In this document: positions 19,018 to 61,610 of the stretch, piece by piece
Layout: every line of letters starts with the position of its first letter
Numbering within the stretch: position 1 is the first letter of the stretch
DNA from: Gemmatimonadota bacterium
GTDB lineage: Bacteria; Gemmatimonadota; Gemmatimonadetes; Gemmatimonadales; GWC2-71-9
Assembly (NCBI GenBank): GCA_041486305.1
Contig: JBGPLG010000001.1
Span: forward strand, 5,544-69,543
DNA: 64,000 nucleotides
Direction of reading: 5' to 3'
Notes under the pieces: model-generated
Database searches by the model: none
Seen by the model: only the letters and a program-made list of their open reading frames with translations
What the model was told of the DNA's origin: nothing
Program-made: the position numbers and the translations under genes

Positions 19018-19121
19018 ATCACGTAACTATATGTTTTGAAAGAAGTTATAACTAGAACTACCGGGACCTTCATGCGTCGGTGTTTAACAATATACCTGTT
19101 TGGCGGTTACTGTGCTAGGCT

Positions 19122-19137
19122 GGTTTCACGTGAAACG
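19122..19137. other. parS centromere-like site 1 (GGTTTCACGTGAAACG)
   Basis: 14/16 match to the canonical parS TGTTNCACGTGAAACA. The core GTTTCACGTGAAAC is perfect. It lies about 105 bp upstream of parA. Confidence 0.85.
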
Positions 19138-19262: not shown

Positions 19263-19278
19263 GGTTTCACGTGAAACC
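19263..19278. other. parS centromere-like site 2 (GGTTTCACGTGAAACC, perfect palindrome)
   Basis: It has the same 14-bp core as site 1 and lies 141 bp from it, 20 bp from the mnmG stop. Confidence 0.85.
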
Positions 19279-31249: not shown

Positions 31250-31510
31250 AATTGCGGAAGGGATGGAAGGGCAAGGAGTTATAGCCGGTTACCTCGTTTC
31301 GGGATTTGAGGCTCCGGGAATGCCGGCCGACGCGAGGGGTCAGGTCGACCGATCTAGGATCGGACTCGCGAATGAACCTGCGCCTCTCATTAGTAGTTTG
31401 ATATACCACCCCTACAGCATGTCTTCCCAAGTGGCTGGGAGGCTCCCAAATCCCGATTCCTGCTCCGGTTCCTCTTGAGGATTCCTGTTCTTGGCCGGAG
31501 ATTGTCAGAC

Positions 31511-36709: not shown

Positions 36710-37849
36710 GTGACCACCTCGCCTCTGCGACTCATCGAGAACTCCACCGAGTTCGAGACGCTGCTCCGGCGGCTCTGCCAGGCGCCGATGGTGGCGATCG
36801 ATACGGAGGCGGCGAGTTTTCACCGCTACCGCGACCGGGTCTACTTGGTCCAGGTCTCGACCCGCGGCGAGACCCACCTCATCGACCCCCTCGCGGTCCC
36901 GGGGCTCCCGGGCTTCGGGGAGTTGCTGGCCGACCCCGCCATCGAAAAAGTATTTCATGACGCTGATTACGATCTCCGGCTCCTGGGGTACGAGTTCGGG
37001 TTCAAAGCGACCAACCTGTTCGACACCAGGGTCGCGGCCCAGTTCCTGAACGAGCCCGGCATCGGTCTCGCTGCCCTGCTCGAGAAGCACATCGGGGTCA
37101 CCCCAGACAAGCGCTTTCAGCGAGCCGACTGGTCGGCTCGGCCCCTGAGCCAGCCGATGCTCGAGTACGCCGCGATGGACACCCGGCATCTGCCCGACCT
37201 GCGAGACCTGATGCGGGACAAACTGGTCGCACGCGGACGGCTCGAGTGGGTCCTGGAGGAGTGTGCGCTGCTCACCGCGGTGCGCTGGCCGGATCCGGTG
37301 CCTTCGGAAGAAGCCGCACTGACGGTCAAGGGCGTCCGTGCCCTCACCCCCCGGGCCCAGGCGCTTTTCCGCGAGCTCTACCTCTGGCGGGCCCGCACGG
37401 CGGAAGCGCTGGATCGGGCAGCGTTCCGAGTCATGGGGAACGAAACGCTCGTGGCACTCGCCCAACAGCCTCCGGCAGACCAAACGGCCCTCGTGGGCGT
37501 GAAGGGTGTGGGACGCGATATCGCCGAGCGACGCGGAACGGAAATCATGGCCGCGGTCCGACGGGGGCTCGAGCTGCCGGATGCCGAGCTCCCCCGTTTG
37601 CCCCGAGGCCCGCGCCGCCGTCCCGACCCAGTCTTCGATGTGCGGCTCGAACGCCTGAAGGCGCTCCGCACCGGCCTGGCCGCCCGGGAGGATCTGGCCC
37701 CCGGGGTGCTCTGCCCCAATTGGCTACTCGAAGCGATTGCCCGTGCCGCACCGGCGACCCTGGAGGAATTGGGGCAGGTCGAGGGAATCCGTCGCTGGCA
37801 GGTCGGTGCTATCGGGCCGGACCTGCTCAAGGTAATCCCAGCCACGTAG
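36710..37849 (+). CDS. rnd: ribonuclease D (DEDD 3'-5' exonuclease plus HRDC domain)
   Basis: VAIDTEA, HDADYDL and YAAMD exonuclease motifs, with an HRDC-like C-terminus. GTG start. Confidence 0.85.
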   Translation: MTTSPLRLIENSTEFETLLRRLCQAPMVAIDTEAASFHRYRDRVYLVQVSTRGETHLIDPLAVPGLPGFGELLADPAIEKVFHDADYDLRLLGYEFGFKATNLFDTRVAAQFLNEPGIGLAALLEKHIGVTPDKRFQRADWSARPLSQPMLEYAAMDTRHLPDLRDLMRDKLVARGRLEWVLEECALLTAVRWPDPVPSEEAALTVKGVRALTPRAQALFRELYLWRARTAEALDRAAFRVMGNETLVALAQQPPADQTALVGVKGVGRDIAERRGTEIMAAVRRGLELPDAELPRLPRGPRRRPDPVFDVRLERLKALRTGLAAREDLAPGVLCPNWLLEAIARAAPATLEELGQVEGIRRWQVGAIGPDLLKVIPAT

Positions 37850-37862
37850 TTGTAATTACAAC
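37849..37862. repeat. perfect AT-rich palindrome GTTGTAATTACAAC, the core of the motif GTAGTTGTAATTACAACA (37846-37863)
   Basis: It overlaps the rnd stop codon and ends 5 nt before the ATG at 37867. It matches 52904-52921 at 16 of 18 positions. Confidence 0.7.
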
Positions 37863-37866
37863 ATCT

Positions 37867-38547
37867 ATGAGAATCCCGGAACGGCCCCAGACCTTGGGTC
37901 CTCCGGCGGTTCGCGTCGTTCTTTCCAGTCTGACCCAACGCTTCTTCGGTTGGTATCGTCATACGAGTGCAGGCAGAACCGAAGCCCATGCGGCCGCAAG
38001 GGACGGTGTGGTGGACGATACGGATCTGATCGCGGGCGCGCGCGCCGGCGACCGGTTGGCAGCCCGCCGACTCTACGACCGACACGCCCCCCGGGTGTAT
38101 CGGCTGATCTTTCGCATGGTTGGCGAGGAGTCCCTGGCTCAAGAATACACGCAGGACACGTTCGTGAAGGTATTCGACCGATTGGAGCAGTATCGCGGCG
38201 AGTCGGCATTTTCGACCTGGCTGCATTCGGTGGCGATGTCATCGGTCCTGACGGGATTTCGGCGCCGCAAGAGGATTCGGTCCCGGGAGATCGAGCTGGA
38301 GGAAGCGTCGGCGGTGGCCGCGCCACCGGGTGGCTCGGACCCGTACCTGAGGGATCGGTTGACGGCGGAGCTGGAACGGCTCCCGGACCGGCTGCGGATT
38401 CCGGTGGTGCTGCACGACATCGAGGGGTTCACCCATCGGGAGATCGGCGAGATGCTGGACATTCCGCAGGGCACCAGCAAGGCCCGGCTCTTTGAAGCGC
38501 GAGCACGACTGCGCGACGCGCTGGCCGGCGTCGCGACAGAGCAGTGA
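37867..38547 (+). CDS. ECF-family RNA polymerase sigma factor
   Basis: Region 2 (RLYDRHAPRVYRLIFRMVG..AQEYTQDTFVKVF) and region 4 (EGFTHREIGEMLDIPQGTSKARL). The start is ambiguous: ATG 37867 (leaderless geometry) or GTG 38008 (AAGGGA Shine-Dalgarno, 179 aa). Confidence 0.85.
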   Translation: MRIPERPQTLGPPAVRVVLSSLTQRFFGWYRHTSAGRTEAHAAARDGVVDDTDLIAGARAGDRLAARRLYDRHAPRVYRLIFRMVGEESLAQEYTQDTFVKVFDRLEQYRGESAFSTWLHSVAMSSVLTGFRRRKRIRSREIELEEASAVAAPPGGSDPYLRDRLTAELERLPDRLRIPVVLHDIEGFTHREIGEMLDIPQGTSKARLFEARARLRDALAGVATEQ

Positions 38548-43824: not shown

Positions 43825-44603
43825 GGGGTGATCACTTCGCGGATTGTTCCGAGTGGTAGTTCGTACAACAACGTCAACGTCGAGCGATCCCTCTGGCTCA
43901 GAATGGCTGTCCGGGTTACCGGGAACATGACGTCGTCGGGATTGGGTGAGTGCGCCAACCCCATCGCGTGGCCGATCTCGTGTACTGCCACGGCGAGGAG
44001 GCCGCGGCCTGGGATGGGCCGGCCGGCCTGATCTCGCCGCGCCAGCGTAATCACCGCGGAGTGAATCAGACCATCCCTCGACCATTGAAGGTCGGTCTGG
44101 CCCGCCCGCTCTCCGGCAAGCTGGTCGCTCCCTCGCACCAGGATCTGGGCGCCGGTCGTGTCGGAAGTCACGCTGAAGCGAAGGCCCAGCCCGGCGGCCT
44201 CCCAGGTGGCCACCGCCTGGTGCAGCACCGCCACGAGCCCGGCATCGTACCGGGCCGAGTCTCCGGGAGGGATGGCGATGACAAAGGGCGCTCCGGTCCG
44301 GTCGGGCCACCGGCGCACCACCGAATCGGTTTCGGCGAACAATGAATCGAAATAAGTCGTTCGGGTGGCCCGGACCAGGCGGCGGCGGCCTTCGAGGCGC
44401 GCCAGCAGATCGATGGTTGGGGTGCCGGCGGGCTGCAGGACCGGCGTGAGAACGGGGGCGGGCGGCGGAAGCGGCCTTGGTCCGGGCGGCCGAATCACCT
44501 CGATGGCCTTAACCGCGGGCCCCGCCACGGCGGGACGGTTGAGCCGACCGATCAGGAGAAGCGCGAGAAGCACCGCGAGCGCGAGCAGGAGGGAGCGCGA
44601 CAT
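43821..44603 (-). CDS. matrixin-like (M10) zinc metalloprotease
   Basis: Starts at MSRSLLLALAVLL. HEIGHAMGLAHS zinc-binding motif. Confidence 0.8.
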   Translation of the reverse strand: MSRSLLLALAVLLALLLIGRLNRPAVAGPAVKAIEVIRPPGPRPLPPPAPVLTPVLQPAGTPTIDLLARLEGRRRLVRATRTTYFDSLFAETDSVVRRWPDRTGAPFVIAIPPGDSARYDAGLVAVLHQAVATWEAAGLGLRFSVTSDTTGAQILVRGSDQLAGERAGQTDLQWSRDGLIHSAVITLARRDQAGRPIPGRGLLAVAVHEIGHAMGLAHSPNPDDVMFPVTRTAILSQRDRSTLTLLYELPLGTIREVITP

Positions 44604-47088: not shown

Positions 47089-49920
47089 CTAGCTCTTTGC
47101 GTCGAGCCAGTTGTCTCCTACTCCCACATCCACGACCAGCGGTACCTCCAGCGACGCCGCGCCTTCCATGTGCGCTTTGACCAGCGCCGCGACCGGCTCG
47201 ACTTCCTCCGCCGGCGCCTCGAGCACCAGCTCGTCGTGGACCTGGAGGAGCAGCCGGCCCGCGAATCCGCCATCCCGCAGCGCGCCGTGGAGGCGGGCCA
47301 TGGCAATCTTGATCAGGTCGGCGGCGGAGCCCTGAAGCGGGGCGTTCTGGGCCTGGCGCTCCCCGAACGCCCGCACGTTGAAGTTGCGGTCGTGCACCTC
47401 GGGGATATACCTGCGCCGGCCGAAGAGGGTCTCCACGTACCCGCGCTCGCGGGCAATCTCGACCTGCCGATCGAGGAACCGCCGGACTCCGGAAAACCGC
47501 CGGAAGTACTCGGCGATGAACGCCTTGGCCTCTTCCTGGGGAATCGAGAGCTGCTTCGACAGCGCGAAGGGGCCCTGGCCGTAGATCGTGCCGAAATTGA
47601 TGGTCTTGGCGCGGGCTCGCATGTCCGGGGTCACCGCCGGAAGCGGCACATCGAAGATGATCGCCGCCGTCTGGCGATGGATGTCCTGTCCCTGCCGGAA
47701 GGCCTCGATGAAGGCGGGGTCGAGGGAGAGGTGGGCCATCAGACGCAGCTCGATCTGCGAATAGTCCGCCACCACGAACTTCCACCCCGGTTGCGGCACG
47801 AAGCCGCGGCGGATGGCCTCACCGCGGGGGGAGCGCACCGGGATGTTCTGCAGGTTGGGGTCGGTCGAGGAGAGCCGCCCCGTCGCGGCGCCGATCTGAT
47901 TGAAGCTGGTGTGGATCCGGCCGGTGGATTTGTTGATGGCCCTGGGAAGCACGTCGACATAGGTGGAGCGGAGCTTTTCCAGCTCGCGATAGTCCAGCAG
48001 GAGCTTGGGCACCAGGTGCCCCATCTCGGCGAGCTGCTCGAGCACATCGGCGTCGGTCGAGGGGCCGGTCTTGGTGCGCTTGAGCGCAGGGAGCTGAAGC
48101 CTCTCGAACAGCACCGCGGCGAGCTGTTTCGGGCTGTTCAAATTGACCGAACCGCCTGCCGCGACCGCGATTTCGGCTTCGAGCCGCTGCAGGTCGGCGG
48201 CGAGCTCCTTGGCGAGGCGACCGAACAGCCCGGGATCGATCGCGATGCCGACCCACTCCATGTCAACCAAGACCTCGACCAGGGGCATCTCCAGTCCGTC
48301 CAGCAGCGGCTGCATCGCCGATTCGGCCAGCCGGGGCAGGAAGAGCCGGTGCAACGCGAGGACAATGGCGCTGTCGGTGCCGCAATACTCCGCCGCGTCG
48401 GCAATCGCCACCTCGGCAAAGGGAATCCGGGCCTTTCCCTTCCCCGTGAGGTCGTCATAGCTCCGCATCGGCCGGCTCAGCAGCTCGAGCGCGAGGGTGT
48501 CGATCCCATGCGAGCGGCGGCCCGGGTCCAGCAGAAAGCTGGCCAGCATCGAATCGTAGACCACCCCCTTGAGCTCGACGCCGGCCCGACGGAGCACCTG
48601 CCAGTCGTACTTGATGTTGTGCCCGGCCTTCTTCACCGCCGGATCCCGCAGCAGCGCGGCGATCGGAGCGAGTGCGGGATCGGTGAGGGGAGGGAGGTTG
48701 GTCACCGGGGCCGGCGCGGCCAACTCCCCGCCCCGCGGCAGATGCCCGAACGGCAAGTACCACGCGGTTTCCGGGTCCACCGCGAGGGAAAGGCCTACCA
48801 GCTCGGCATCGCGGGGATCGAGCGAGGTGGTCTCGGTGTCGATGGCAATGAGGGGAGCGGCGCGGAGCGCCAGCGCCAAGGCCTCAATCTGCTCGGGGCC
48901 GTCGACGACCCGCACGCACGACGCCGGTGCGGTGGGGAGCGTTGCCGGCACCGGCGGCACCGGGCCCGCCGGGGCGAGGGCCTCGATCGCCGGATCAGCC
49001 GGGGCCTCGGACCGACCACCGGCTTCGGTGAGCCGCTTGGCAAGGGAATGAAACTCCAGCCGGGCCAGGACCTTGACCAGCGCGTCGGTATCGGGCTCCC
49101 GCATGGCCGCCGTCCCGATGTCCAGATCGACGGGCACATCGCATTGGATGGTGACCAGCTCACGGGAAAGCCGGGCTTCCGCCGCATACTGCGCCAGCGC
49201 CTCCCGCGGGCGCTTGGCCTTGATCTCGCCCGCCCTAGCCAGGAGGGTTTCCAGGTTGCCGTACTCGGTCAGGAGCTGCACCGCCCCCTTGTCGCCGATC
49301 CCCCGGACTCCCGGCACATTGTCCGAGCTGTCGCCGACCAGGGCCAGGTAATCCGCCACTTGATGCGGCGGTACCCCCAGTCGCTCGGAAGCGTTGGTCT
49401 CATCGACCCACATCTCGTCGACGCCGCCGGGACCTCCCCGGCCCGGATTGAGCAGCGAGATCCCGGGCCCGATGAGCTGGTAGAAATCCTTGTCGCCCGA
49501 AACGATCACCACCTGGCGACCCGCCGCGGCCTCCCGCTTGGCCACGGTGCCGATCACGTCGTCGGCTTCATAGCCCTGCACCGCGAGCGCGGGAATGCGG
49601 AATGCCGTCAGCAGCGCGCCGATCTGTTCCAGCGCGGTGTCGAAGTCGGCCTGGAGCTCCGAATCGAGTTTCTCGCGGGTGGACTTGTATTCGGCGTAGC
49701 GCTGGGTGCGGAACGAGTCGCCCGCGTCCAGAACCCAGACCAGGTAGTCAGGACGGTACTTGGACTGGAGCCGCAGCAGGAAATTGACCACGCCCCAGGC
49801 CGCGGAGGTGTTCTCCCCGCGGCTGGTCCGGAGCGGCCGGGTGATCAGGGCGAAGAATGCGCGATAAATGAGCGCGTAACCATCAACCAGGAAGAGCTGG
49901 GGCGGTACGTGGTTGGACAT
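47089..49920 (-). CDS. polA: DNA polymerase I
   Basis: 5'-nuclease domain, 3'-5' exonuclease-like domain, and a family-A polymerase domain (DYSQIELR, QVHDE). Confidence 0.96.
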   Translation of the reverse strand: MSNHVPPQLFLVDGYALIYRAFFALITRPLRTSRGENTSAAWGVVNFLLRLQSKYRPDYLVWVLDAGDSFRTQRYAEYKSTREKLDSELQADFDTALEQIGALLTAFRIPALAVQGYEADDVIGTVAKREAAAGRQVVIVSGDKDFYQLIGPGISLLNPGRGGPGGVDEMWVDETNASERLGVPPHQVADYLALVGDSSDNVPGVRGIGDKGAVQLLTEYGNLETLLARAGEIKAKRPREALAQYAAEARLSRELVTIQCDVPVDLDIGTAAMREPDTDALVKVLARLEFHSLAKRLTEAGGRSEAPADPAIEALAPAGPVPPVPATLPTAPASCVRVVDGPEQIEALALALRAAPLIAIDTETTSLDPRDAELVGLSLAVDPETAWYLPFGHLPRGGELAAPAPVTNLPPLTDPALAPIAALLRDPAVKKAGHNIKYDWQVLRRAGVELKGVVYDSMLASFLLDPGRRSHGIDTLALELLSRPMRSYDDLTGKGKARIPFAEVAIADAAEYCGTDSAIVLALHRLFLPRLAESAMQPLLDGLEMPLVEVLVDMEWVGIAIDPGLFGRLAKELAADLQRLEAEIAVAAGGSVNLNSPKQLAAVLFERLQLPALKRTKTGPSTDADVLEQLAEMGHLVPKLLLDYRELEKLRSTYVDVLPRAINKSTGRIHTSFNQIGAATGRLSSTDPNLQNIPVRSPRGEAIRRGFVPQPGWKFVVADYSQIELRLMAHLSLDPAFIEAFRQGQDIHRQTAAIIFDVPLPAVTPDMRARAKTINFGTIYGQGPFALSKQLSIPQEEAKAFIAEYFRRFSGVRRFLDRQVEIARERGYVETLFGRRRYIPEVHDRNFNVRAFGERQAQNAPLQGSAADLIKIAMARLHGALRDGGFAGRLLLQVHDELVLEAPAEEVEPVAALVKAHMEGAASLEVPLVVDVGVGDNWLDAKS

Positions 49921-51494: not shown

Positions 51495-52400
51495 ATGAGC
51501 CAAGATAATCTCGTCGGCCGGACTGTGGCCGGATACAAACTCCTCTCGCATGTCGGCGAAGGTGGCACCGCCACCGTCTATCGCGCGGAGCATTCCGAGC
51601 GGGGGCCGGCGGCCATAAAGATCCTGCGCCCCCGCATGGCGCAGGATCCCGTGGCCGTCAAGCGCTTTCTCCGCGAGGCGGAGTTCGGGGCCCGCATCAA
51701 TCACAAGTACATCATCCGCACCTACGATTTCGGCGAGGCCGAGGGCCTGTATTACCTGGCCCTCGAATGGGCCCAGGGCGAGCCGCTTGGCACGTTCCTG
51801 AGCGCGGCCGGGCGACTGGCTCCGCCGCTCGCCGCCAGGATCATCGAGCAGCTCGGCGCCGCGCTGGAAGTGGCGCACAAGGCCGGCATCATCCACCGCG
51901 ACCTGAAGCCCGCCAACATCATGTACGATCCGGAGACGCAGACCGCGCGGCTCCTGGATTTCGGCATCGCGCGAGACGCGGAGGACAATCCGGCCGACCG
52001 GTTGACCCGCGCGGGGTTCTTCGTGGGCACCTTGCAGTACGTGGCCCCCGAAGCCCTCTCGGGAGAGCTGGTGGGCGAGCAGGCCGATGTCTATAGCCTG
52101 GCGACCATCGCCTACCACCTGCTTACCGGCATACTACCCTTCCCCGGGCGCAGCCCGCGCGAACTCTTCCAGCAGCTGCTGACCCAGTCTCCGATTCCGC
52201 TCAACGAAGCCGTGAAGGGGCTCAAGTTCACGAAAGAGATCGAAGCCGCGGTAATGACCGGCCTCGAGCGGGATCTGACGAAGCGCTGGAAGACCGTAGG
52301 AGGGTTCGCCCGAGCGTTCTGCGCCGCGGCAGGCGCGGAGGCAGCGCCGGAAAAGAAGGGCGGCTTCCTCTCTTCGTTCTTCCGCCGAGGCAGCGAGTGA
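51495..52400 (+). CDS. Ser/Thr protein kinase (kinase domain plus short tail, 301 aa)
   Basis: GEGGTATVY, AIK, HRDLKPANI and DFG motifs. Its stop overlaps the pyrE GTG (GTGA). Confidence 0.9.
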   Translation: MSQDNLVGRTVAGYKLLSHVGEGGTATVYRAEHSERGPAAIKILRPRMAQDPVAVKRFLREAEFGARINHKYIIRTYDFGEAEGLYYLALEWAQGEPLGTFLSAAGRLAPPLAARIIEQLGAALEVAHKAGIIHRDLKPANIMYDPETQTARLLDFGIARDAEDNPADRLTRAGFFVGTLQYVAPEALSGELVGEQADVYSLATIAYHLLTGILPFPGRSPRELFQQLLTQSPIPLNEAVKGLKFTKEIEAAVMTGLERDLTKRWKTVGGFARAFCAAAGAEAAPEKKGGFLSSFFRRGSE

Positions 52401-52945
52401 CCGATCAGGAGGCGCTCGCGGCACTGCTCCGCGAGCGCTCCGTCAGCCTGGGCGATTTCCTGCTTTCCTCCGGCCAGCGCTCCACCTACTACATCGACGC
52501 CCGCAAGACCACCATGTCCGCCGAGGGCCAGCGCTTGATCGGGAGACTCGGCCTGGCGGCCATCCGGGCCGCAGGTTGGCGGCCCGCATCGGTGGGCGGA
52601 CTGACCATGGGGGCCGACCCGGTGGCCTACGCGATCGCCCGGGAGAGCTTGGACGCGCCCCCCCTCATCCAGGCGTTCAGTGTACGGAAGACGGTCAAAG
52701 ATCACGGTACCCGCCGACGCATCGAGGGGAATTTCTCGTCGGGTGACACCGTGGTGATCGTAGAAGACGTGATCACGCTGGGTGGCTCTGCAGCCGAGGC
52801 AATCGACTCGGTGACCGAGGCCGGAGGCCGGGTGCTGGGTGTTCTGGCCGTTGTCGACCGCGAACAAGGCGGCCGGGAAAAACTCCAAGCGAGAGGAATT
52901 AAAGTAGTTGTATTAACAACAACTAGCGAACTCAGCCTGGGCTAG
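52397..52945 (+). CDS. pyrE: orotate phosphoribosyltransferase
   Basis: PRPP-binding loop VVIVEDVITLGGS and an N-terminal FLLSSGQRSTYYID motif. Confidence 0.9.
   Translation: MTDQEALAALLRERSVSLGDFLLSSGQRSTYYIDARKTTMSAEGQRLIGRLGLAAIRAAGWRPASVGGLTMGADPVAYAIARESLDAPPLIQAFSVRKTVKDHGTRRRIEGNFSSGDTVVIVEDVITLGGSAAEAIDSVTEAGGRVLGVLAVVDREQGGREKLQARGIKVVVLTTTSELSLG
52904..52921. repeat. second copy of the AT-rich motif (GTAGTTGTATTAACAACA), inside the pyrE 3' end
   Basis: 16/18 identical to 37846-37863. It is encoded with A/T-ending codons that are atypical for this sequence. Confidence 0.65.
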
Positions 52946-52965
52946 GCCTTCGGTGACGACCCCGC

Positions 52966-53832
52966 TCAATCCTCCCTCCGCGATCCCCGTAAGGGGTGAA
53001 ACTCCGACCAGACTCTCTTGTACGGCAGCACCAATTGTGCAAGAAAACGCTCCAAGGCCGTCGGGAAGGGAAATCGACGGCGAAACTCACCGGGTGTGAT
53101 GCCGAGCATCGCCCGAATGGTGCGCCCGAAGCTCTGGGGGGAGGAACAGTCGAGCCGGTAGGCGACGTCTGCCACGGATCGACCGCCACCCTCGAAGAAC
53201 TGTGCCGCATAGAGCAGCCGCACTGCGGCCAGGTAAGTCTTGGGGGAGGGAAGCCCGGCGCGGGCAAACCGGGACATGAGCGTGCTCGGCTTGATGTCGA
53301 ATCGCGCGGCAACTGTCCGCACCGCCGGCATCTCCGGGGCAAGCCGGATCAGCAGCTCGAGGAACATTCTCGAATCCTGGGACAGCTCGGGGAGCGAAGC
53401 GAAGACCGGGGCCAGGATTCGGGAGGCCCCGTGCGTGGCGGGCTCGGCCACCAGCTGGCGGAGGCGATTCCACCCAGCCGGGATGGTGACATCCACCACC
53501 TGGCGCACCCCGGTGGCGCCGAGGCGGAGCAGCGTTTCCGAAGCGAGGGCATCGTGTCGGGTAACCAGCGCCACGGTGGGCACACCGGGAAAGCTCCGAA
53601 CCAGTTGATCGACTTCATCAACCTGGCCCTGGGCACACTGGTGCACGGAGAGGAGCACGGCATCGATCGCCCGTTCCCGTACGGCCCGCACCACCTCCGG
53701 CACGGAGTTTCGGTGGAGAACGGCAAAGCAGCCGATACTCGCCGCGTCGAGACTGGCCCGCTCGGCGGGGGTTAGCACCGCCGCAACCGTGGGGGCGGAG
53801 GGTCGAGTGAGGGCTGCGACGGCGACTGGCAT
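52966..53832 (-). CDS. AraC-family transcriptional regulator with an N-terminal receiver-like (pseudo-receiver) domain
   Basis: C-terminal AraC HTH (VADVAYRLDCSSPQSFGRTIRAMLGITPGEFRR). The N-terminus has a CheY-like alternating pattern without an obvious phospho-acceptor context. Confidence 0.78.
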   Translation of the reverse strand: MPVAVAALTRPSAPTVAAVLTPAERASLDAASIGCFAVLHRNSVPEVVRAVRERAIDAVLLSVHQCAQGQVDEVDQLVRSFPGVPTVALVTRHDALASETLLRLGATGVRQVVDVTIPAGWNRLRQLVAEPATHGASRILAPVFASLPELSQDSRMFLELLIRLAPEMPAVRTVAARFDIKPSTLMSRFARAGLPSPKTYLAAVRLLYAAQFFEGGGRSVADVAYRLDCSSPQSFGRTIRAMLGITPGEFRRRFPFPTALERFLAQLVLPYKRVWSEFHPLRGSRRED

Positions 53833-53922
53833 CGGGGGGTCCGGAGCGTAAGTTGAGGTGACGATGGCCCGGTTCCCTCAACCGCCAGTCAACTGGGCCG
53901 GCGGTCGGCTTTTCGCAGAACG

Positions 53923-56900
53923 GTGCCAAACGCAACGAACCACCCCATTTCGGCATCGAATGGGGTATCCCCTGGCAAGGTCGTGGCAGTGACCGACACC
54001 GAGCTCTTCCAGACCCTGGTTCGGACGCTGGGCCAGCAATACCGGCTCGAGCGGGAAGTCGGGCGGGGAGGGATGGGCGTGGTGTTCCTAGCCACCGACC
54101 TGGCTCTTGACCGTCGGGTCGCGGTCAAAGTCATCCATCCTGACTTGGTCGTGAATCGGGCGCTGGCCGCCCGCTTCCTGGCCGAGGCCCGGCTGGTGGC
54201 GCGGATCCGCCATCCGAACATCGTCACGGTGCATGCGGCCGGCGACGCGGAAGGCCACCTCTTCTACGTCATGGATTTTCACGAAGGCGAGACGCTCCGC
54301 CAGCGGCTTCGCCGGGAGCGCCGCCTTCCTGAGGCAGTGGCCGTGTCCATCGCCGCAGACCTGGCGCTGGCGCTGGACGCCGCGGCCGCGACGGGGGTCG
54401 TTCATCGCGACCTCAAGCCGGAGAACATTCTGCTCGAGGGCCCGCCAGAGACCCCGACGGCCCTTCTGGCCGACTTTGGCATCGCCCGCCTGGTGGATGG
54501 TGTGGAGGGACCCACGGGTCCAACGGCCGTCATGGGCACGCCAGCGTATATGAGCCCGGAGCAGGCCGCCGGCGAGGAGATCGACTCCCGCAGCGACCTG
54601 TATTCGCTGGGCGTCGTGGCCTACGAGATGCTCGCTGGCGAGGCGCCGTTTACCGGCCCGGCCCGTATCGTGGTCTCTCGGCAGATCATCGATCCACCGC
54701 CGCCACTCGCCATCGTCCGCCAGGGACTTTCGGCGCCGGTGACCGACGCGGTCATGCGGGCGCTCGAGAAGATCCCGGAAAGCCGCTGGCAAAGCGGCGC
54801 CGCTTTCCGGCGTGCGTTGCTGGGAGAGCCGACACCGCCCGCGCCGGTGCCGCCGGGGAAACGGCGGCGGCGGCGGCGGCTCGGGGTCACGGTGGCGCTG
54901 ATGATCCTGCTCGCGGCCGCGCTCGGGGTTCTGGTGAAGGGCAGGGCAGGGGCACTCCGCGGTGCCAATCCCCGGCTCTCGCTGCTGGTGCTCCCGTTCG
55001 ACAACCTGCGGGACGATCCGGCACTCGCGTGGCTGCACGATGGCAGCGTCAACATGCTGGCTATGGCGCTTTCGCAGTGGCGCGATCTCGGCGTCGTGGA
55101 TCAGGACCGGGTCCACGACCTCTTGAGCCAGGCCAGGGTTCCCGATGACCAGCCGATCGGACTGGCCGAGGCGCGCCGGCTGGCTCGGCAGGCGGGCGCC
55201 GGCACCGTGGTGCTGGGAGACTACGCCCGCGCGGGTGATTCGCTCCGCCTCACTGCGCGCACCTATGACGTGGCCACCGGGGCGCGGGTCGATGTGGTAG
55301 AGTCCGCGGGCCGGGCCACCGACGACGTGCGGCCGTTGTTCGACGAACTGGCGGGCCGCCTGCTCGACCTCTCGGGCGCCCCCTCGGGCCGGCAGAGCCC
55401 CCTCGCCACAGTCACGACGGGATCGCTGGAGGCCTATCGAGCGTACCTGCAGGGCGTCGAGCACCTCAATCACTGGGAGCTGTTGCCCGCCGAGATCTCG
55501 TTCCGGCGCGCGGTGGCGCTCGACAGCACGTTCAGTCTCGCCTATTTCAAGCTCGGGCTCACCAGAGGGTGGGTGCTGGGCGCGGGCGACAGCGCTGGCC
55601 GGAACGCGGTCCTCCAGGCCTCACGATTCGCCGACCGGCTCCCGGAGCGTCAGCGCGGAATGATCGGCGCCTACCGCGCCATGCTCGATGGTGAGTACGA
55701 GCGGTCCCAGCAGCTGTACCGGAACATCCTGGCGCGCGATTCGGCGGACGCCGACGCCTGGTACGGATTGGGGGACGCGTTCTTCCACGACTCGGTCGCG
55801 GGGCTGACGCCGGGAGGCATGACGCGCTCGCTTCAGGCGTTCGGGAAGGCGCTGTCCCTCGATCCTCAGTACGCACTGGCATACGAGCACGTCACCTACC
55901 TGCTGACCGGCGCCGCCGGCCGGACCGCAAGCTATGCGCTGGTGGCTCCCGATTCGTTCGCGGCCACGATGGTGGCGGGAAAGCCTGCGCTCGACAGCAC
56001 TACCCGAGCAGCCGCACTCCGGCGCGCCGGTGCGGCTGCGGTGCGCGCCGCGCGGAACTGGGTCGCCTCTCAGCCGGCTACGGCGCGTGCGCACCATGCG
56101 CTCTTCGAGGCCTATTTTGCGAGCGAGGACTGGAACCAGGCTTCGCTCGAGGTCGCCGAGCTGGGGCGTTTGCTGCCGCCGGCGGGTCGCGGCCTTGCGG
56201 CCTTTCTCGAGGCCCGGGTGCGCTTCGCCAGGGGAGAGGCGCGCTCGGCCGCGACCCTGGTGCGGAGCACCACCGCCTCGTTCGGCGGCCGTGCGCCGGC
56301 ACTGCCCGATTTCGGGAGGGAATTCGTCTCCGACGTGATGGCCGGAGCGAACACCCTGGCCTATCAAGGCGATCTCGATGGCGCGGCGGACGTCATTGCG
56401 CTGGGCGACGCGATCCGCCGGGCAACGCTGATTCCCGCGAGCTCACCGACGATCTGGGACCAGGACGATGTGTGGCAGTGGTCCCGGCTGGCCCAGTTGT
56501 ACAGCGCGGCGGGCGGGCCGGCTCGGGAGCTCCGACGGGTCTGGTCCGATGTGGTGGAGGCGGCCAGGCGGGCGCCTGCGGCGGATCGCGCCAGCGTGGC
56601 CGGGGCGGGGGCCGCCGCCGCGGTCGGGCTGCTCCTCGGCGCGGAACCGGACAGCCGCCCGCTGGCCGAGCTGGAGACGTTGACCGGCCGATCCGCCTCT
56701 CCCGAGGTGCGGGCCCTCGCGGCGCTGGCGCGGGGCGACAGCGCGGTGGCCCGACAGGCGCTGGCCGATTCCGGCAGGCGGCCGGATCAGCCGGTGACCA
56801 AGACCGACGCGATCTACCTGGGCGTCGCCTGGAACGATCCCCGGCCGCTCGAGGCGGAGGCACGGTACCAGCTGGGCGACTACCGGGGCGCGATCGACAT

Positions 56901-57195
56901 GCTCCAGTCGTTCACCGAGACCCAGTTGTTCCGACGCGGATTCGACTCGCGCTGGGGCATCCTGGGCCGGGTGCACCTGCTGCGGGGCCTGGCCTACGAA
57001 CGGCTGGGCGAACCGGATCGTGCCACCCGCGAGTTCAGGGAGGTGGTCGTCGCCTGGCAGGGCGCCGACGAGCCGCTGCTGACCTTCGTCCAGCAGGCGC
57101 AGGCGGGCCTGGCTCGCTTGCGGGGATCGGTCGAGACCAAGAGCGAGGCGGCGATCGAGCCGCCGGGTTGCTCGGGGTGCAGCGGTATCCGCTAG
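53923..57195 (+). CDS. membrane Ser/Thr protein kinase with a large extracytoplasmic TPR-rich region
   Basis: Kinase motifs (GRGGMGVV, HRDLKPENI, DFG), one TM helix after an RRRRRR stretch, then TPR-like repeats. The GTG start is uncertain. Confidence 0.85.
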   Translation: MPNATNHPISASNGVSPGKVVAVTDTELFQTLVRTLGQQYRLEREVGRGGMGVVFLATDLALDRRVAVKVIHPDLVVNRALAARFLAEARLVARIRHPNIVTVHAAGDAEGHLFYVMDFHEGETLRQRLRRERRLPEAVAVSIAADLALALDAAAATGVVHRDLKPENILLEGPPETPTALLADFGIARLVDGVEGPTGPTAVMGTPAYMSPEQAAGEEIDSRSDLYSLGVVAYEMLAGEAPFTGPARIVVSRQIIDPPPPLAIVRQGLSAPVTDAVMRALEKIPESRWQSGAAFRRALLGEPTPPAPVPPGKRRRRRRLGVTVALMILLAAALGVLVKGRAGALRGANPRLSLLVLPFDNLRDDPALAWLHDGSVNMLAMALSQWRDLGVVDQDRVHDLLSQARVPDDQPIGLAEARRLARQAGAGTVVLGDYARAGDSLRLTARTYDVATGARVDVVESAGRATDDVRPLFDELAGRLLDLSGAPSGRQSPLATVTTGSLEAYRAYLQGVEHLNHWELLPAEISFRRAVALDSTFSLAYFKLGLTRGWVLGAGDSAGRNAVLQASRFADRLPERQRGMIGAYRAMLDGEYERSQQLYRNILARDSADADAWYGLGDAFFHDSVAGLTPGGMTRSLQAFGKALSLDPQYALAYEHVTYLLTGAAGRTASYALVAPDSFAATMVAGKPALDSTTRAAALRRAGAAAVRAARNWVASQPATARAHHALFEAYFASEDWNQASLEVAELGRLLPPAGRGLAAFLEARVRFARGEARSAATLVRSTTASFGGRAPALPDFGREFVSDVMAGANTLAYQGDLDGAADVIALGDAIRRATLIPASSPTIWDQDDVWQWSRLAQLYSAAGGPARELRRVWSDVVEAARRAPAADRASVAGAGAAAAVGLLLGAEPDSRPLAELETLTGRSASPEVRALAALARGDSAVARQALADSGRRPDQPVTKTDAIYLGVAWNDPRPLEAEARYQLGDYRGAIDMLQSFTETQLFRRGFDSRWGILGRVHLLRGLAYERLGEPDRATREFREVVVAWQGADEPLLTFVQQAQAGLARLRGSVETKSEAAIEPPGCSGCSGIR

Positions 57196-57224
57196 CCAGG
57201 GCGGCGCTTCCACCGTATAGTTCT

Positions 57225-57610
57225 GGCACGGGTCGAACGCGATGGTCGCGGGGGAACGCGAGTTCCCCCGAGGAAAGTCCGAGCTCCAACGGGTAGACTG
57301 CCAGGTAACGCCTGGGCGCCGAGAGGCGACGGACAGGGCCACAGAAAACAGACCGCCTCACGCAAGTGAGGTAAGGGTGAAACGGTGGGGTAAGAGCCCA
57401 CCGCGCTCCTGGCAACAGCGAGCGGCACGGCAACCCCCAGTCGGAGCAAGGCCAAATAGGCGGCGAGGTGTGGCCCACACCGACAACACCGGCAACGGTG
57501 AGCCGCGGGTAGGCTGCTCGAGGTGGCCGGCGACGGCCATCCCAGACAGATGACCATCCTTCGCGCGGAAGCGCGGGGAACAGAACTCGGCTTACGGTTC
57601 GACCCGTGCC
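57225..57610 (+). ncRNA. rnpB: RNase P RNA, bacterial type A
   Basis: Universal elements are present: GAGGAAAGTCCGAGCTCC, ACAGAAAACAGACCGCC, GGTAAGGGTGAAA, GGTAAGAGCCCACC, CAGACAGATGA and ACAGAACTCGGCTTAC. The P1 helix pairs GGCACGGGTCGAAC with GTTCGACCCGTGCC. A TATAGT -10-like box lies at 57216-57221. Confidence 0.92.
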
Positions 57611-57705: not shown

Positions 57706-58500
57706 ATGTCGGTCCGTTCCACGATGCTTGCGTCGCTGGCCCTGATGCCATTCGCCCTGCCAGCGACGCCCCCGGCGGCGAGCACCACGCGATACCGCTT
57801 CGACCTCAAGGTGGAGACGACGGTGGACCTGAGCGTGGTCGGCGCCCCGACCCAGGTCACCAATCTCGGCCTCAACGCCTGGGTCGTGATGACGCTCAGC
57901 GACAGCGCGGGCGGCAAGGTCGTCCACGTCATCGTCGACTCGCTCAAGGTGGATACGACGATTCCGCAGATCACCCCCGCGACCATCGACAGCGCGAAAG
58001 GGGGCATGGTCCATGGCTGGGTCGACCCTACCGGTCACATCAAGAACGTCACCGGTACGCCGAGCGGGAACCCGCTGCTCGCGTCGGTGCAGGGGGTCGT
58101 CAACGCGCTCTTCCCCCGGGTCAAGGCCGGCACCAAGGCGGGCGATCACTGGGTCGACACGACCGAGGTGTCCAACTCCGGAGAAGGAAACAACACCAAG
58201 GTCAAGCTCGTTCTGAACTACGCCGCGGAGGGCAACGAGACCGTGGCCGGGCTGCCGGCCACCAAGGTGACGGCGAGCAGTACTTCCACCGTGTCGGGCA
58301 CCATGGAGAACGCGATGGCCGGCACCATGGAGGTCGAGGGGAACGGCACCGGGACCGGAACATTCTCCATTGGAACCGACGGCCGATTCCTGGGCGGCAC
58401 CTTGGCGTCCACGATTGACCAGCGACTGAAGGTCGCGATGGCACCGGCGCCGATCCCGGTCAAGACGATCCAGTCGCTCACCGTCACCCTGCTCAAGTGA
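57706..58500 (+). CDS. secreted hypothetical protein, paralog 1 of a tandem pair
   Basis: Signal peptide (LASLALMPFALPA) and a beta-rich, Thr/Gly/Val-rich body. I recognise no family. Confidence 0.6.
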   Translation: MSVRSTMLASLALMPFALPATPPAASTTRYRFDLKVETTVDLSVVGAPTQVTNLGLNAWVVMTLSDSAGGKVVHVIVDSLKVDTTIPQITPATIDSAKGGMVHGWVDPTGHIKNVTGTPSGNPLLASVQGVVNALFPRVKAGTKAGDHWVDTTEVSNSGEGNNTKVKLVLNYAAEGNETVAGLPATKVTASSTSTVSGTMENAMAGTMEVEGNGTGTGTFSIGTDGRFLGGTLASTIDQRLKVAMAPAPIPVKTIQSLTVTLLK

Positions 58501-59360
58501 GACCAGGCTTTCTGGGTGCCTGCGCGGCGGCCCTGGTGGGCGCGTGCGCAGGTACCAAGGGCTCGGCGCCGCCGGAGCCGGTCAGCGGAGCCCAGCCCAT
58601 AGCGGTACCGGCGGCGCCGAGCCCCCCGATCCACTACCGTCTGCGCACCCCCTTGGTGTATGAAGTGGAGCGATATGACAGCCTGTTCTACGCCAGCATG
58701 CCGGGCGCACCCCAGGCAACCGCCAAACGTGCCGTTCTGACTGCCCTGCCGCTCACCAGCCGGGGCAGTGACGTTGAAGTCCGGCTCGATTCCCTGTTGG
58801 CGCTTGAGGACACCCGGCTGACCTCGACTAGCGTCGACAGCAGCGTCGGGCGCCGCTGGCAATTCACGCTCGGCCCGACCGGCCCCAAAGGGGTGATGCT
58901 GGGGGGTCATCCGACGATTCTCTCGGGCCAAATCGAGGCGATCGTCAGGTTGTTGTTTCCGCAACTACCGTCGGAAGGCCTCCGGAGTCTGGATACCTGG
59001 AGCGATTCGACCTCGTACCGAGTGCAGCTTGATGCCTTCGATGCGTTCGAGACGGCGGTCCGGACCAGTCAGTCGGTGCCAGGCGTCGCGCAGACCGGCC
59101 AAGGCTCCGGGGTGTCGGTGGAGGCAAACGAGCGGCTCACCCGCACCGGCACGGCGATGCAGGCCGGCCAGGTCATGACCCTTAGAGGCGCTGGACTGCG
59201 CCGGTTGCGCTACGAGTTTGGTTCGGATGGCTGGGTCAGCGCCCTGACCGCACGAGACTCGCTCGACCTGGTCGTGACGGTCGGACCGGCGGGCGAAACG
59301 GTTCCCGTCCGCTGGCGCTCGACTCTGATCGGTCGACTGCGTGACCTACCCGTTCGCTGA
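58497..59360 (+). CDS. hypothetical lipoprotein, paralog 2 of a tandem pair
   Basis: The GTG start overlaps the previous stop (GTGA). Lipobox LVGACAG. Several blocks align by eye with paralog 1 (YR.., VDSL/LDSL, LFP, ..SDG../..TDG..). Confidence 0.6.
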   Translation: MRPGFLGACAAALVGACAGTKGSAPPEPVSGAQPIAVPAAPSPPIHYRLRTPLVYEVERYDSLFYASMPGAPQATAKRAVLTALPLTSRGSDVEVRLDSLLALEDTRLTSTSVDSSVGRRWQFTLGPTGPKGVMLGGHPTILSGQIEAIVRLLFPQLPSEGLRSLDTWSDSTSYRVQLDAFDAFETAVRTSQSVPGVAQTGQGSGVSVEANERLTRTGTAMQAGQVMTLRGAGLRRLRYEFGSDGWVSALTARDSLDLVVTVGPAGETVPVRWRSTLIGRLRDLPVR

Positions 59361-60225
59361 ACCGGAGGTACCCGCGGAGAGGCGCCGCGGTGGCTTTCGG
59401 GCGCTCAAGCGGATTGCTCGGTACGCCTGCCTCCTGTTCTTCGCCTGGCTCTGGTTCCTGTGGCCGCCGCCAGTCTGGTACCGGTGGGCCTGGCCCAGAC
59501 AAACGGCGTTCATGGCCATGCGCCGCGGTGAGGAGCGCCAGGTGCTCACGAGGGGCCTTGCCAAGGGCGAGCTGCCCAGGCGGCTGTACCAGCCGGTGGC
59601 GATCGAGCTGATCGCGCCGGTGGCGAAGACCGCAGCGCTGGTGGCGGAGGATCACCGCTTCTACGAGCACGCCGGTATCGACTACGTGGAGTTCCGCCAC
59701 GCCCTGGGCTATCGACCGGACGATTTTTCGGTGGGAAGCGCGCGCGATCGAGCCGAGCTGTGGCGGGCCCTGGAGCGGAGCCTGGCGGGGAAGGGACGGA
59801 TGCGGGGCGCCAGCACGATCACCCAGCAACTGGCCAAGAATCTCTACCTGTCCCCTTCACGCAACCCGCTCCGGAAGGTGAAGGAGGCGGTGACCGCCTG
59901 GCGGCTGGAGTACTGGCTGGGGAAAGAGCGGATCCTCGAACTGTACCTCAACGTCGTGGAGCTCGGGCCCGAGGTGTGGGGAGTCGAGGCGGCGAGCCGG
60001 AAGTATTTCGGCCACCCGGCACGCCAGCTGACGCTGGACGAGGCGGCCGCGCTCGCCGGCTCGCTGCCGTTCCCACTCAAGTCGAATCCGGGGTACCGTC
60101 CGGGCCGGATGCGCTGGCGTCAGGCGATGATCCTTCGCCGGGTGCGGGGAGAGAAGGTCGAGATTCCGAGGACGGCGGAGGAAGTCGATTCGGTAAGGCC
60201 GGATACCACCGGAATCCAGTACTGA
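59341..60225 (+). CDS. mtgA: monofunctional biosynthetic peptidoglycan transglycosylase (GT51)
   Basis: N-terminal TM helix. EDHRFYEHAGID, GASTITQQLAKN and RKVKEA motifs. Overlaps the preceding gene by 20 nt. Confidence 0.87.
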   Translation: MTYPFAEPEVPAERRRGGFRALKRIARYACLLFFAWLWFLWPPPVWYRWAWPRQTAFMAMRRGEERQVLTRGLAKGELPRRLYQPVAIELIAPVAKTAALVAEDHRFYEHAGIDYVEFRHALGYRPDDFSVGSARDRAELWRALERSLAGKGRMRGASTITQQLAKNLYLSPSRNPLRKVKEAVTAWRLEYWLGKERILELYLNVVELGPEVWGVEAASRKYFGHPARQLTLDEAAALAGSLPFPLKSNPGYRPGRMRWRQAMILRRVRGEKVEIPRTAEEVDSVRPDTTGIQY

Positions 60226-60274: not shown

Positions 60275-61387
60275 TCAATCCACCAGCCGAAGCGGCATCA
60301 CCAGCGTCATGAAGCTCGCCGGATCATCCCAGCCCACCGGCTCGCAGGTCGCGGCGCGCTCGGGGGCTTTGAAGGTCATGCGTACCTCGTCGGTGGGCAT
60401 GTACTTCAGGATCTCGAGCATGTAGGCCGCGTTGAAGCCGATTTCCAGGGAGTCGCCCTCGTAGGCTACCGCCAGTTCCTCCTGGGCCTCGCCCAGGTCC
60501 GGGGTCTGGACCGACATCTTGCAGGCGCCGTTGGTGAACGCCATCCGGATCCGGTGGGTCTGGTCACTCGCCACGATGCTCATACGGCGGAGGGCCGCGG
60601 CCAGCGCGGCTTTATCGGCAGTGAGGCTCTTGTCGTTCTCCCGCGGGATTACCTGTTCGTAGTTTGGGTAGGGGCCCTCGATCAGACGGGTGTAGATCTG
60701 CGTGGTGGTCGATCGGAACCCGAGGTGGTTGTCGCTCTTCCCGATTTCGATCTCCTCGTCGCCCCCGAAGAGCCGGCGAATCTGATCCAGCGCCTTGGGC
60801 GGGATGATCAGATCCGCCTGTCCGCCGCCCTGGCCGCTGGTCGGTACATCCATGCGCGCCAGTCGGTGCCCGTTGGTGGCGACCATCCGCATCCGGTCGG
60901 CGCGGAGCTCCCAGAGCACCCCGTTCAGAATCGGGCGGCTCTCCTCGGTGCTGGCGGCAAAGGCGACGTGGCTGATCAGCTTCTGCAGATCCTTGGCCGC
61001 CACCTTCCAGCCCCCCTCGAACTTGACGGTGGGGAAGGCGGGGAACTCGTCCCGGGACAGGCCCAGGAGCTTGAACTTGGACTTGCCGCACTCGATGCTG
61101 GCGCGCTGCTCGCCGGAGCTGGTCATCCGGATAGCGGCGTTGGGGAGCTCCTTCACGATCTCGACCAGTTTGCGGGCCGGGAGCGTCGTGGCGCCCTCCT
61201 GGTCAACCGAGGCCGGTATGGTGGTGCTCACCGAGATGTCGAGATCCGTGCCGGAGAGCTTGAGCCCGTCCTTGGATGCCTCGACCAGAATGTTGGCCAG
61301 CACGGGAAGCGTAGTCTTCGAAGGCACGCTTGCCGCGACCGCCCCGAGACCTTCATGGAGTTTTTCCCGCGTGATCGTGAACTTCAT
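60275..61387 (-). CDS. dnaN: DNA polymerase III beta sliding clamp
   Basis: Starts at MKFTITREKL (61387). Full-length three-domain DnaN similarity. Confidence 0.96.
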   Translation of the reverse strand: MKFTITREKLHEGLGAVAASVPSKTTLPVLANILVEASKDGLKLSGTDLDISVSTTIPASVDQEGATTLPARKLVEIVKELPNAAIRMTSSGEQRASIECGKSKFKLLGLSRDEFPAFPTVKFEGGWKVAAKDLQKLISHVAFAASTEESRPILNGVLWELRADRMRMVATNGHRLARMDVPTSGQGGGQADLIIPPKALDQIRRLFGGDEEIEIGKSDNHLGFRSTTTQIYTRLIEGPYPNYEQVIPRENDKSLTADKAALAAALRRMSIVASDQTHRIRMAFTNGACKMSVQTPDLGEAQEELAVAYEGDSLEIGFNAAYMLEILKYMPTDEVRMTFKAPERAATCEPVGWDDPASFMTLVMPLRLVD

Positions 61388-61610
61388 CCGAAAGCTCCCC
61401 GCAAAGCCCAATAAGAAGAGACTACTTACAGATAGTTATACCTAGCAGCAGTAGTAGAGGAGCTGAAGATGTGGACATGGTCCGCAAGTGACGTGTCCAC
61501 CGGCTCATCCCTTGTTTGGTCGCGTGGGGATCGTGTTGGCATTGGGGATAGATGCGCCCCCGCTGTGCCCTTATCCCCGATCGTCCACAGGACCACATAC
61601 GCCGAAGCGA
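61388..61610. other. candidate oriC module (dnaA-dnaN spacer): AT-rich patch plus a cluster of degenerate DnaA boxes
   Basis: AT-rich stretch at about 61410-61460. 9-mers matching TTATCCACA/TGTGGATAA at 7/9: 61470-78 TGTGGACAT, 61543-51 TGGGGATAG, 61571-79 TTATCCCCG, 61581-89 TCGTCCACA. Weaker 6/9 matches at 61493-501 and 61525-33. Confidence 0.5.

Follow-up and report, generated by a model that had tools for sequence, protein, structure and literature searches.

The 3′ end of pyrE in a Gemmatimonadota bacterium raises the question of why a run of codons ending in A or T should stand in DNA with a G+C content of about 0.67, and whether it is the peptide or the nucleotide sequence that has been kept there. 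The stretch of DNA analysed (the window) comprises 64,000 nucleotides (nt). The product of pyrE scores 131.7 bits against the TIGR00336 profile (cut-off 106.8) and its best match in the PDB is 5hkf, an orotate phosphoribosyltransferase. Both alignments pass through to the C-terminus with no insertion in the tail, in agreement with the first-pass annotation of this DNA, which had taken the encoded peptide for a normal PyrE C-terminus. The gene and the codon run are as follows.

52397–52945, plus strand: pyrE, orotate phosphoribosyltransferase (182 residues; open reading frame, TIGR00336, PDB match 5hkf), the host of the element.
52892–52924, plus strand: 11 consecutive A/T-ending codons, AGA GGA ATT AAA GTA GTT GTA TTA ACA ACA ACT.

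The last 18 codons of pyrE open with this run, which had been described as ten codons long (52895–52924); the run is real, but AGA at 52892 also qualifies and the count is 11. Third positions in the window are, as had been stated, mostly G or C, with an A/T fraction (AT3) of 0.17 in the 40 confidently framed genes. Given the codon usage of the window, the probability that all 11 codons of the peptide RGIKVVVLTTT would end in A or T is 1.6 × 10^-10, and 5 × 10^-5 runs of at least 11 A/T-ending codons are expected in 17.5k codons. Each of the 11 codons is rare, accounting for 0.3–17% of its family; TTA supplies 0.3% of the leucine codons, and GTA, ACA and ACT supply 4–5% of their families. The most AT-rich 20-mer of all 64 kb (17 of 20) lies at 52896–52919.

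The answer that emerges from the comparisons below is that the nucleotide sequence itself is constrained inside the coding region, and that the constrained motif recurs at several loci, both in non-coding DNA and in more than one reading frame, with a conservation that is symmetric but free of base-pair covariation. From these sequence patterns we propose, as a reading that is plausible although short of probable, that the pyrE tail is an operator-like site embedded in coding DNA for a putative dimeric DNA-binding protein. The consensus is a 20 bp inverted repeat of 7-6-7 geometry, GTAGTTG-N6-CAACTAC (in a wider form GTAGTWG-N6-CWACTAC, where W is A or T), and its copies in the window are the following.

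52904–52923, unstranded: motif core in the pyrE tail, GTAGTTG TATTAA CAACAAC, one mismatch to the consensus.
37846–37865, unstranded: second copy, GTAGTTG TAATTA CAACATC, in which TAG serves as the stop of an RNase D-type gene (36710–37849).
58949–58968, unstranded: third copy, GTTGTTG TTTCCG CAACTAC, in a hypothetical open reading frame (ORF; 58497–59360).
43856–43875, minus strand: fourth, weaker copy (three mismatches), within the final 18 codons of a matrixin-like gene.
31393–31409, unstranded: degenerate relative and tentative member, GTAGTTTGATATACCAC, in the divergent intergenic region between sufB and the peptide deformylase gene.

Exact matches to GTTG-N6-CAAC are found at three places in the window (37849, 52907 and 58952). 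The second copy is the palindrome with which the first-pass annotation had compared the pyrE tail, and the match is real: the tail and 37846–37863 (GTAGTTGTAATTACAACA) are identical at 16 of 18 positions, and none of 100 shuffles gave any match. That palindrome had been placed upstream of an extracytoplasmic function (ECF) sigma gene; the part of the ECF sigma ORF that matches sigma-70 region 2 lies about 140–160 nt downstream of it, and the palindrome also overlaps the stop codon of the RNase D gene. A weak hairpin that resembles a terminator and is followed by T-rich DNA (CGGCGGTTCGCGTCG TTCTTTCCAG) is present at 37904–37928, 55 nt past this stop, so that the copy may sit in the 3′ untranslated region of the RNase D gene and not in the ECF sigma promoter. 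The third copy is read in the codons AGG TTG TTG TTT CCG CAA CTA CCG and is located about 390 nt upstream of a transglycosylase gene. The sense strand of the fourth reads ACG TTG TTG TAC GAA CTA CCA, 32–51 nt ahead of the ATG of a beta-lactamase-family gene.

The tail was compared with 80 Gemmatimonadales pyrE loci of 60–86% protein identity (set 1; 81 loci with the window; individual loci are cited below by L numbers). About half of the relatives write VVxLTT(T/A) with A/T-ending codons despite a G+C fraction at third positions of 0.7–0.85 in pyrE, and in the 18 closest AT3 reaches 0.78–0.83 over codons 166–178, compared with 0.23 gene-wide. The identity of the third base is not raised there (0.42–0.50 compared with 0.51 overall, for pairs with the same amino acid among the 18 closest relatives). 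Third bases have thus been exchanged between A and T and have stayed A or T, which points to a continuing constraint and not to a frozen or unerased relic. As a negative control, an AT-rich run in the RNase D gene (GAA AAA GTA TTT CAT GAC) has no AT-rich counterpart in about 75 relatives. The remaining relatives (mostly the most GC-rich genomes) encode the same peptide as GTG/GTC...ACC/ACG. The first-pass annotation had claimed selection on the nucleotide sequence itself, and had named ordinary GC-rich codons in relatives as evidence to the contrary. Such codons are confined to the more distant, higher-GC half, the closer half keeping the A/T codons, and the claim is borne out by the turnover of the retained A/T wobbles and by the recurrence of the same words in non-coding DNA as well as in other frames.

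The genes that flank pyrE are these.

51495–52400, plus strand: Ser/Thr kinase gene (Pfam), which overlaps the pyrE start and carries the motif at RELFQQLL in 35 relatives.
52966–53832, minus strand: convergent AraC-type (HTH_18) regulator gene (Pfam), given as context and not shown to be part of the element.

In 35 of the 80 relatives the RELFQQLL of the kinase, about 245 nt before the pyrE start, is encoded as GAG TTG TTY CAG CAA CTA CTN (Y, C or T), which places a copy of the motif in a reading frame different from that of the pyrE tail copy. Elsewhere in those kinase genes CTA makes up 0.9% and TTG 8% of the leucine codons and CAA makes up 11.6% of the glutamine codons. The spacer codons keep their preferred forms (CAG, TTC/TTT) and only the arm codons are unusual. 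The kinase gene of the window itself is GC-rich at the RELFQQLL position (52143–52166), with ordinary codons and no motif. At the tail position 28 of the 81 loci have zero to three mismatches to the consensus; ten loci have both the kinase and the tail copy, the kinase copy stands alone in 25 and the tail copy in 18, and 28 loci have neither. This mixed distribution indicates that the site is conserved regionally, not positionally, and that it is not universal.

The other copies are also retained in relatives. The third copy has orthologues at L003 7405 and L004 7557, whereas L006 and L008 have a copy in the non-coding spacer that separates the rnpB terminator from the start of the transglycosylase gene, L067 has one within the transglycosylase gene and L063 has one upstream of a PspC-like gene. 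A second, independent set of 80 further loci (set 2; 831 kb) was obtained by a metagenome scan with the RNase D protein. In every RNase D relative of at least 65% identity the stop codon, mostly TAG, falls within an AT-rich inverted repeat of the same words, which in most cases fits 7-6-7 with at most three mismatches; in more distant ones a convergent gene lies at the stop and the motif is lacking. The fourth copy is kept in eight relatives, about +6.0 kb from the RNase D stop, and the sufB/deformylase region of six relatives contains orthologous GTAGT..ACTAC or GTTGT..ACAAC inverted repeats. GTAGT and ACTAC occur with spacers of 1, 4, 7 and 10, and a hidden Val-Val...Thr-Thr coding frame was considered for this series and rejected owing to stop codons in frame (window 31393, L202); slippage of GTA/TAC-like triplet units is the more likely origin. 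A related arrangement was observed in a distant relative, where GTAGTT-ATGAC-AACTAC (L231 5092–5108, L232 12612–12628) encloses the ATG of a lipoprotein-like gene (MTTTIALLTACA), the inverted repeat straddling the start codon 7–8 nt after a GGAGA Shine–Dalgarno sequence.

With spacers of 0–12 scanned, GTTG-N6-CAAC gives 43 matches, compared with two to seven for every other length. In the window and the pyrE loci together, 56 sites have at most two mismatches to the 14 specified bases (0.3 expected), and the window alone has six at up to three mismatches (0.5 expected). In set 2 there are eight matches with at most two mismatches (0.7 expected) and 35 with three (11 expected). As single words neither GTAGT nor CAACTAC is over-represented, and the signal lies in their paired arrangement.

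Valine (GTN) and threonine (ACN) codons are complementary and VV...TT is therefore palindromic whatever the wobble base. In 40 motif-bearing tails, 80.4% of cells are paired, compared with 79.5% after partners are shuffled (156 of 500 shuffles equal or exceed the observed value), and 70–78% remain paired when the partner is slid by three columns. The formal test on these tails revealed no covariation beyond Val/Thr codon complementarity, one pair having double changes, and an apparent excess at motif positions 6/15 was rejected, being accounted for by the AT/GC class of the genomes. The choice of wobble base is nevertheless ordered. A hand tally of the codon table for the closest relatives gives GTA at Val1 (12 A to 4 T) and ACT at Thr6 (15 T to 2 A), whereas Val2 and Thr5 accept A or T. 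The outer wobbles (A3/T18) are thus fixed to the consensus and the inner ones (6/15) are free, as mirror images of each other, although GTA and GTT, and likewise ACT and ACA, are about equally rare in the window.

These preferences bear on another explanation of the run, a translational pause, in which a conserved cluster of rare codons would slow ribosomes near the PyrE C-terminus (for folding, dimerization or coupling) and the palindrome would be a by-product of Val/Thr codon complementarity. We regard both parts of this explanation as very improbable. It would account for the rarity of all 11 codons, for a constraint that acts on A/T and not on a fixed base, for pairing that codon complementarity fully explains and for an AT-richness that exceeds the bounds of the motif. 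Like known position-specific rare-codon clusters, the pyrE run consists of rare synonymous codons kept at the same place in homologues. A cluster conserved for rarity alone would, however, be confined to translated frames, and this is not the behaviour of the motif: its words also occur in non-coding DNA and in another frame, in which the spacer keeps common codons (CAG); GTA is favoured at Val1 and not at Val2, and ACT at Thr6 and not at Thr5, a base-specific mirror preference among codons that are about equally rare; and about 35 relatives encode the same peptide (VVALTT and similar) with ordinary, common codons.

An element acting in RNA is also unlikely, if less so: a small AU-rich stem-loop or a single-stranded AU-rich site in the mRNA, read by an RNase or an RNA-binding protein and serving, for example, in processing or decay at cistron ends, a role to which we give the same low weight. 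Many copies do lie at or near ORF 3′ ends or cistron junctions (the RNase D stop, the pyrE tail, the matrixin-like tail, L217), the arm spacing varies among some orthologues, and the hairpin downstream of the RNase D copy could put that copy in a 3′ untranslated region. Moreover, the change from Thr to Ala (ACT to GCT) leaves a U–G wobble on the sense strand, where 5.7 of 7 positions pair compared with 5.3 of 7 on the antisense strand. The predicted hairpins, on the other hand, are weak (-5 to -8 kcal/mol, with single-site z values of -0.5 to -2.9); at the RNase D-stop sites (n = 19) their stability does not exceed that of shuffled sequences (mean z = -0.4), and the antisense strand is marginally the more stable. 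The lack of covariation past codon complementarity and the frequent A–A or T–T clashes at positions 6/15 (10 of 30) also speak against an RNA stem, as does the existence of canonical GC-rich terminators in the clade, such as the one that follows rnpB in L006. At the gathering threshold only RNase P RNA passes in an Rfam search of the whole window, and at a permissive E-value the best match over the tail in 52300–53100 reaches 16 bits (E = 4). The motif shows no Rfam match, no stability above shuffles and no compensatory changes beyond codon complementarity. A PyrR-binding loop was considered for the upstream sequence CUCCAAGCGAGAGG and rejected, since the resemblance has no Rfam support.

Transcription offers two further explanations. 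An internal or antisense promoter in pyrE, firing into or against the convergent AraC-type gene, had been suggested by the first-pass annotation and is quite improbable. AT-rich DNA is rare in this genome and its other AT islands are promoter regions (parA, dnaN, sufB/def); on the minus strand of the window TACTTT (the reverse complement of 52901–52906) resembles the TAnnTT -10 element of rnpB in relatives, and L025 and L057 have a co-directional gene 9–51 nt after pyrE. The suggestion is not upheld by the scans: no sigma-70-type match was found in 52300–53900, 37700–38100 or 58800–59400, and at the motif sites there is no -35/-10 pair at a spacing of 16–18 with a conserved -10. TAnnTT stands at the same place in only about ten of 35 motif-bearing relatives and is consistent on neither strand; all 12 rnpB promoters have an invariant T at hexamer position 6, where TAGTTG has none; and TTG and TAC are 13 apart in the motif, which is less than a -35/-10 pair requires. 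Upstream of rnpB (window 57160–57228; L003–L076) 12 relatives share the -10-like TAnnTT, often as TAnnTTTG, about 5–7 nt before the mature 5′ end of RNase P RNA (57229–57610; RF00010), with a poorly conserved -35. The hexamer is reminiscent of the -7 motif of Bacteroidetes, TAnnTTTG.

The second transcriptional explanation, a terminator of the AraC-type gene in which a minus-strand hairpin and the U-rich tract ACUUUAAUUCCUCU would end the transcript inside pyrE, we consider highly improbable. Only 20 nt separate the stop codons of the two genes, and relatives have either a gap of 0–100 nt between pyrE and its neighbour or an overlap of the two; among the folds tested, the one on the minus strand ranks first (-7.9 kcal/mol, z = -2.9). 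The stem has no G–C-rich core, however, and a terminator scan of the three motif sites detected none at the motifs themselves, which in the pyrE tail holds for both strands. Relatives do not keep the U tract, other copies of the motif are not in convergent contexts, and in L025 and L057 the tail motif is still present ahead of the co-directional gene. The gap after pyrE has a peculiarity of its own: exact heptamer tandem repeats of three to six copies (AGGACTG, CGTGAGA, AGTACCG and others) fill it in L012, L014, L029, L036 and L076. Such repeats occur within 150 nt of the pyrE stop in five of the 81 loci, compared with six of 741 random 180 nt windows, and imperfect versions are visible in further loci, including L045, L055, L058 and L075.

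A recombination or insertion scar, or a foreign AT-rich 3′ end such as an att site, was another proposal of the first-pass annotation, to which we assign a negligible probability. The local contrast in composition is all that favours it. The kinase–pyrE–AraC order is kept in most of the 80 relatives and the PyrE alignment is continuous to the C-terminus, which together exclude a scar or a foreign 3′ end; in addition, the third bases have turned over while remaining A or T. The locus shows neither a break in synteny or alignment nor a mobile-element gene, its Pfam neighbours (AraC-type, Ser/Thr kinase) not being of that kind. When viral contigs were scanned for the perfect palindrome, no sequence like the pyrE tail was present among the matches listed (at least 120), which have the appearance of chance and come mostly from AT-rich phages. 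Three GC-rich viral sites among those listed (a phage ORF tail, a tRNA-like arm beside an integrase gene and an intergenic site) were set aside as unrelated.

We return to the operator-like site for a dimeric protein. Synonymous codon choice would here write a cis-acting DNA element into the AT-rich tail of pyrE; one subunit of a putative helix-turn-helix (HTH) dimer would read each arm, and the 6 bp spacer would be left unread by the protein. A homodimeric DNA-binding protein predicts symmetric information, an unconstrained spacer of fixed length and occurrence in any frame as well as in non-coding DNA. An inverted repeat of fixed spacing is found at several loci, with a few orthologues at other spacings, and the symmetric information and unconstrained spacer are seen both in the kinase arm codons and in the A3/T18 preference with free W at 6/15. 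The reader of the motif would accordingly be a protein acting on double-stranded DNA, and its binding may regulate neighbouring genes, as an operator or as a roadblock at operon junctions, or may mark the origin-proximal region. Among the explanations offered by the first-pass annotation, a protein-binding site is the candidate mechanism that the sequence evidence favours.

Several observations weigh against this reading. Of the 81 loci, 28 have neither a kinase nor a tail copy. Unlike the kinase site, the tail is AT-rich into the spacer and across three to four flanking codons, which the motif alone does not require. VVxLTTT written with W-ending codons gives about two mismatches by itself, so that membership of the tail in the motif family depends mainly on the A3/T18 preference. 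Many copies are at ORF 3′ ends rather than promoters; the pyrE site has no obvious promoter to control, and conserved operators at coding 3′ ends that face a convergent gene are unusual. The arm spacing deviates at the RNase D stop of some relatives (GTAGTT-5-AACTAC in L214, GTAGT-7-ACTAC in L218 and GTAGT-4-ACTAC in L222), which a dimer of fixed geometry does not predict. Finally, when only independent loci are counted (three new compared with 0.3 expected in set 1, two compared with 0.7 in set 2) the enrichment is significant but modest, and these data had themselves served in part to define the consensus.

Comparison with known systems helps to place the motif. Dimeric HTH regulators of the MarR, LuxR/NarL and TetR types bind palindromic operators, such as GTTGA-N5-TCAAC for MexR and TGTAAG-N6-CTTACA for the GacA box. 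The motif resembles these in its two short inverted arms, its unread spacer of a fixed length of about 6 bp and its overall length of about 20 bp, in its symmetric conservation without covariation, and in its recurrence at several loci, some of them promoter spacers (the transglycosylase genes of L006 and L008); unlike them, its best-conserved copies are mostly in coding sequence or at stop codons. We know of no operator that it matches and of no cognate regulator.

Sites of chromosome organization (parS and the Noc- and SlmA-binding sites) are palindromes of 14–20 bp that often lie within genes, with synonymous constraint and regional presence. The alternation of the motif between the kinase gene and the pyrE tail, and its presence near the transglycosylase gene at three places, are similar, and the window is origin-proximal (parS at 19122 and 19263, dnaN at 61.4 kb). 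The motif density of about one per 8 kb over 37–59 kb is above what is typical of such sites. The motif is not parS itself, being unrelated to TGTTNCACGTGAAACA, and canonical parS sites occur in the window only at 19122 and 19263. Repetitive extragenic palindromic (REP) elements, which are associated with RAYT transposases, are extragenic, present in hundreds of copies, GC-rich in GC-rich hosts and not orthologously conserved across genera. The motif shares with them the form of a small imperfect palindrome starting with GTAG, recurrent and often at gene 3′ ends; its copies are instead mostly intragenic, AT-rich and few (four to six in 64 kb), and an identity as a REP element was rejected because the motif is orthologously conserved across relatives of 60–86% protein identity. 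A DnaA box was scanned for and rejected as well. The dif site, CtrA, sigma-54 and LexA boxes, integron attC and Tus/Ter were rejected by comparison with their known sequences or spacings.

The origin-proximal setting of the window rests on the parS pair together with dnaN. The two canonical parS sites, at 19122–19137 and 19263–19278 (GGTTTCACGTGAAACG, GGTTTCACGTGAAACC), lie between mnmG/gidA (19298–21151, minus strand) and parA (18175–19017, minus strand), with parB downstream, and dnaN is at 60275–61390 (minus strand). Just upstream of dnaN is an AT-rich block (window 61410–61445; L006 8175–8199; L008 8133–8171), within which the window and L006 have the 25-mer ACTACTTACAGATAGTTATACCTAG in identical form, although the sequences on either side of it have diverged. 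The block shares words (ACTACTTAC, AGTTATA.CTAG) with the region upstream of parA (19036–19061) and with some RNase D-stop sites (L210, L222), and is possibly a promoter or an oriC element. In the divergent region between the AraC-type gene and a large Ser/Thr kinase gene (53923–57195), at 53833–53925, a GTTGAGG-N17-CCTCAAC repeat and the palindrome CCAGTCAACTGG are candidate operators distinct from the GTAGTTG-N6-CAACTAC motif. Elsewhere in the window ARAGORN reports a tRNA-Phe(GAA) at 48063–48157; at 95 nt it is about 20 nt longer than a normal tRNA-Phe, which may reflect an intron, an insertion or a miscall.

A wider and more doubtful reading of the comparisons is that the Gemmatimonadales possess an undescribed DNA-binding system, the GTAGTWG-N6-CWACTAC sites of which would be systematically written into coding sequence with very rare codons and retained regionally. 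Examples of such retention, equally doubtful, would be the shift of a copy between the kinase gene and the pyrE tail and among the three positions at the transglycosylase gene. In the literature searched, on the motif itself and on promoter or regulon motifs of Gemmatimonadetes, the motif is not described. If the reading is correct, the sites could belong to an origin-proximal chromosome-organizing or roadblock system or to a global envelope-linked regulon (ECF sigma, PspC-like, transglycosylase and beta-lactamase-family genes). The pyrE tail provides a clean and statistically strong example of an overlapping DNA signal that constrains synonymous sites in a poorly studied, mostly uncultivated phylum, and annotation in this group should treat runs of rare codons such as these as signals and not as errors or foreign DNA. 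GTAGTTG-N6-CAACTAC offers a defined 20 bp bait which, with a handful of conserved target loci, may be used to find the cognate factor, and the same loci would allow the study of regulatory or architectural sites inside the genes of compact GC-rich genomes.

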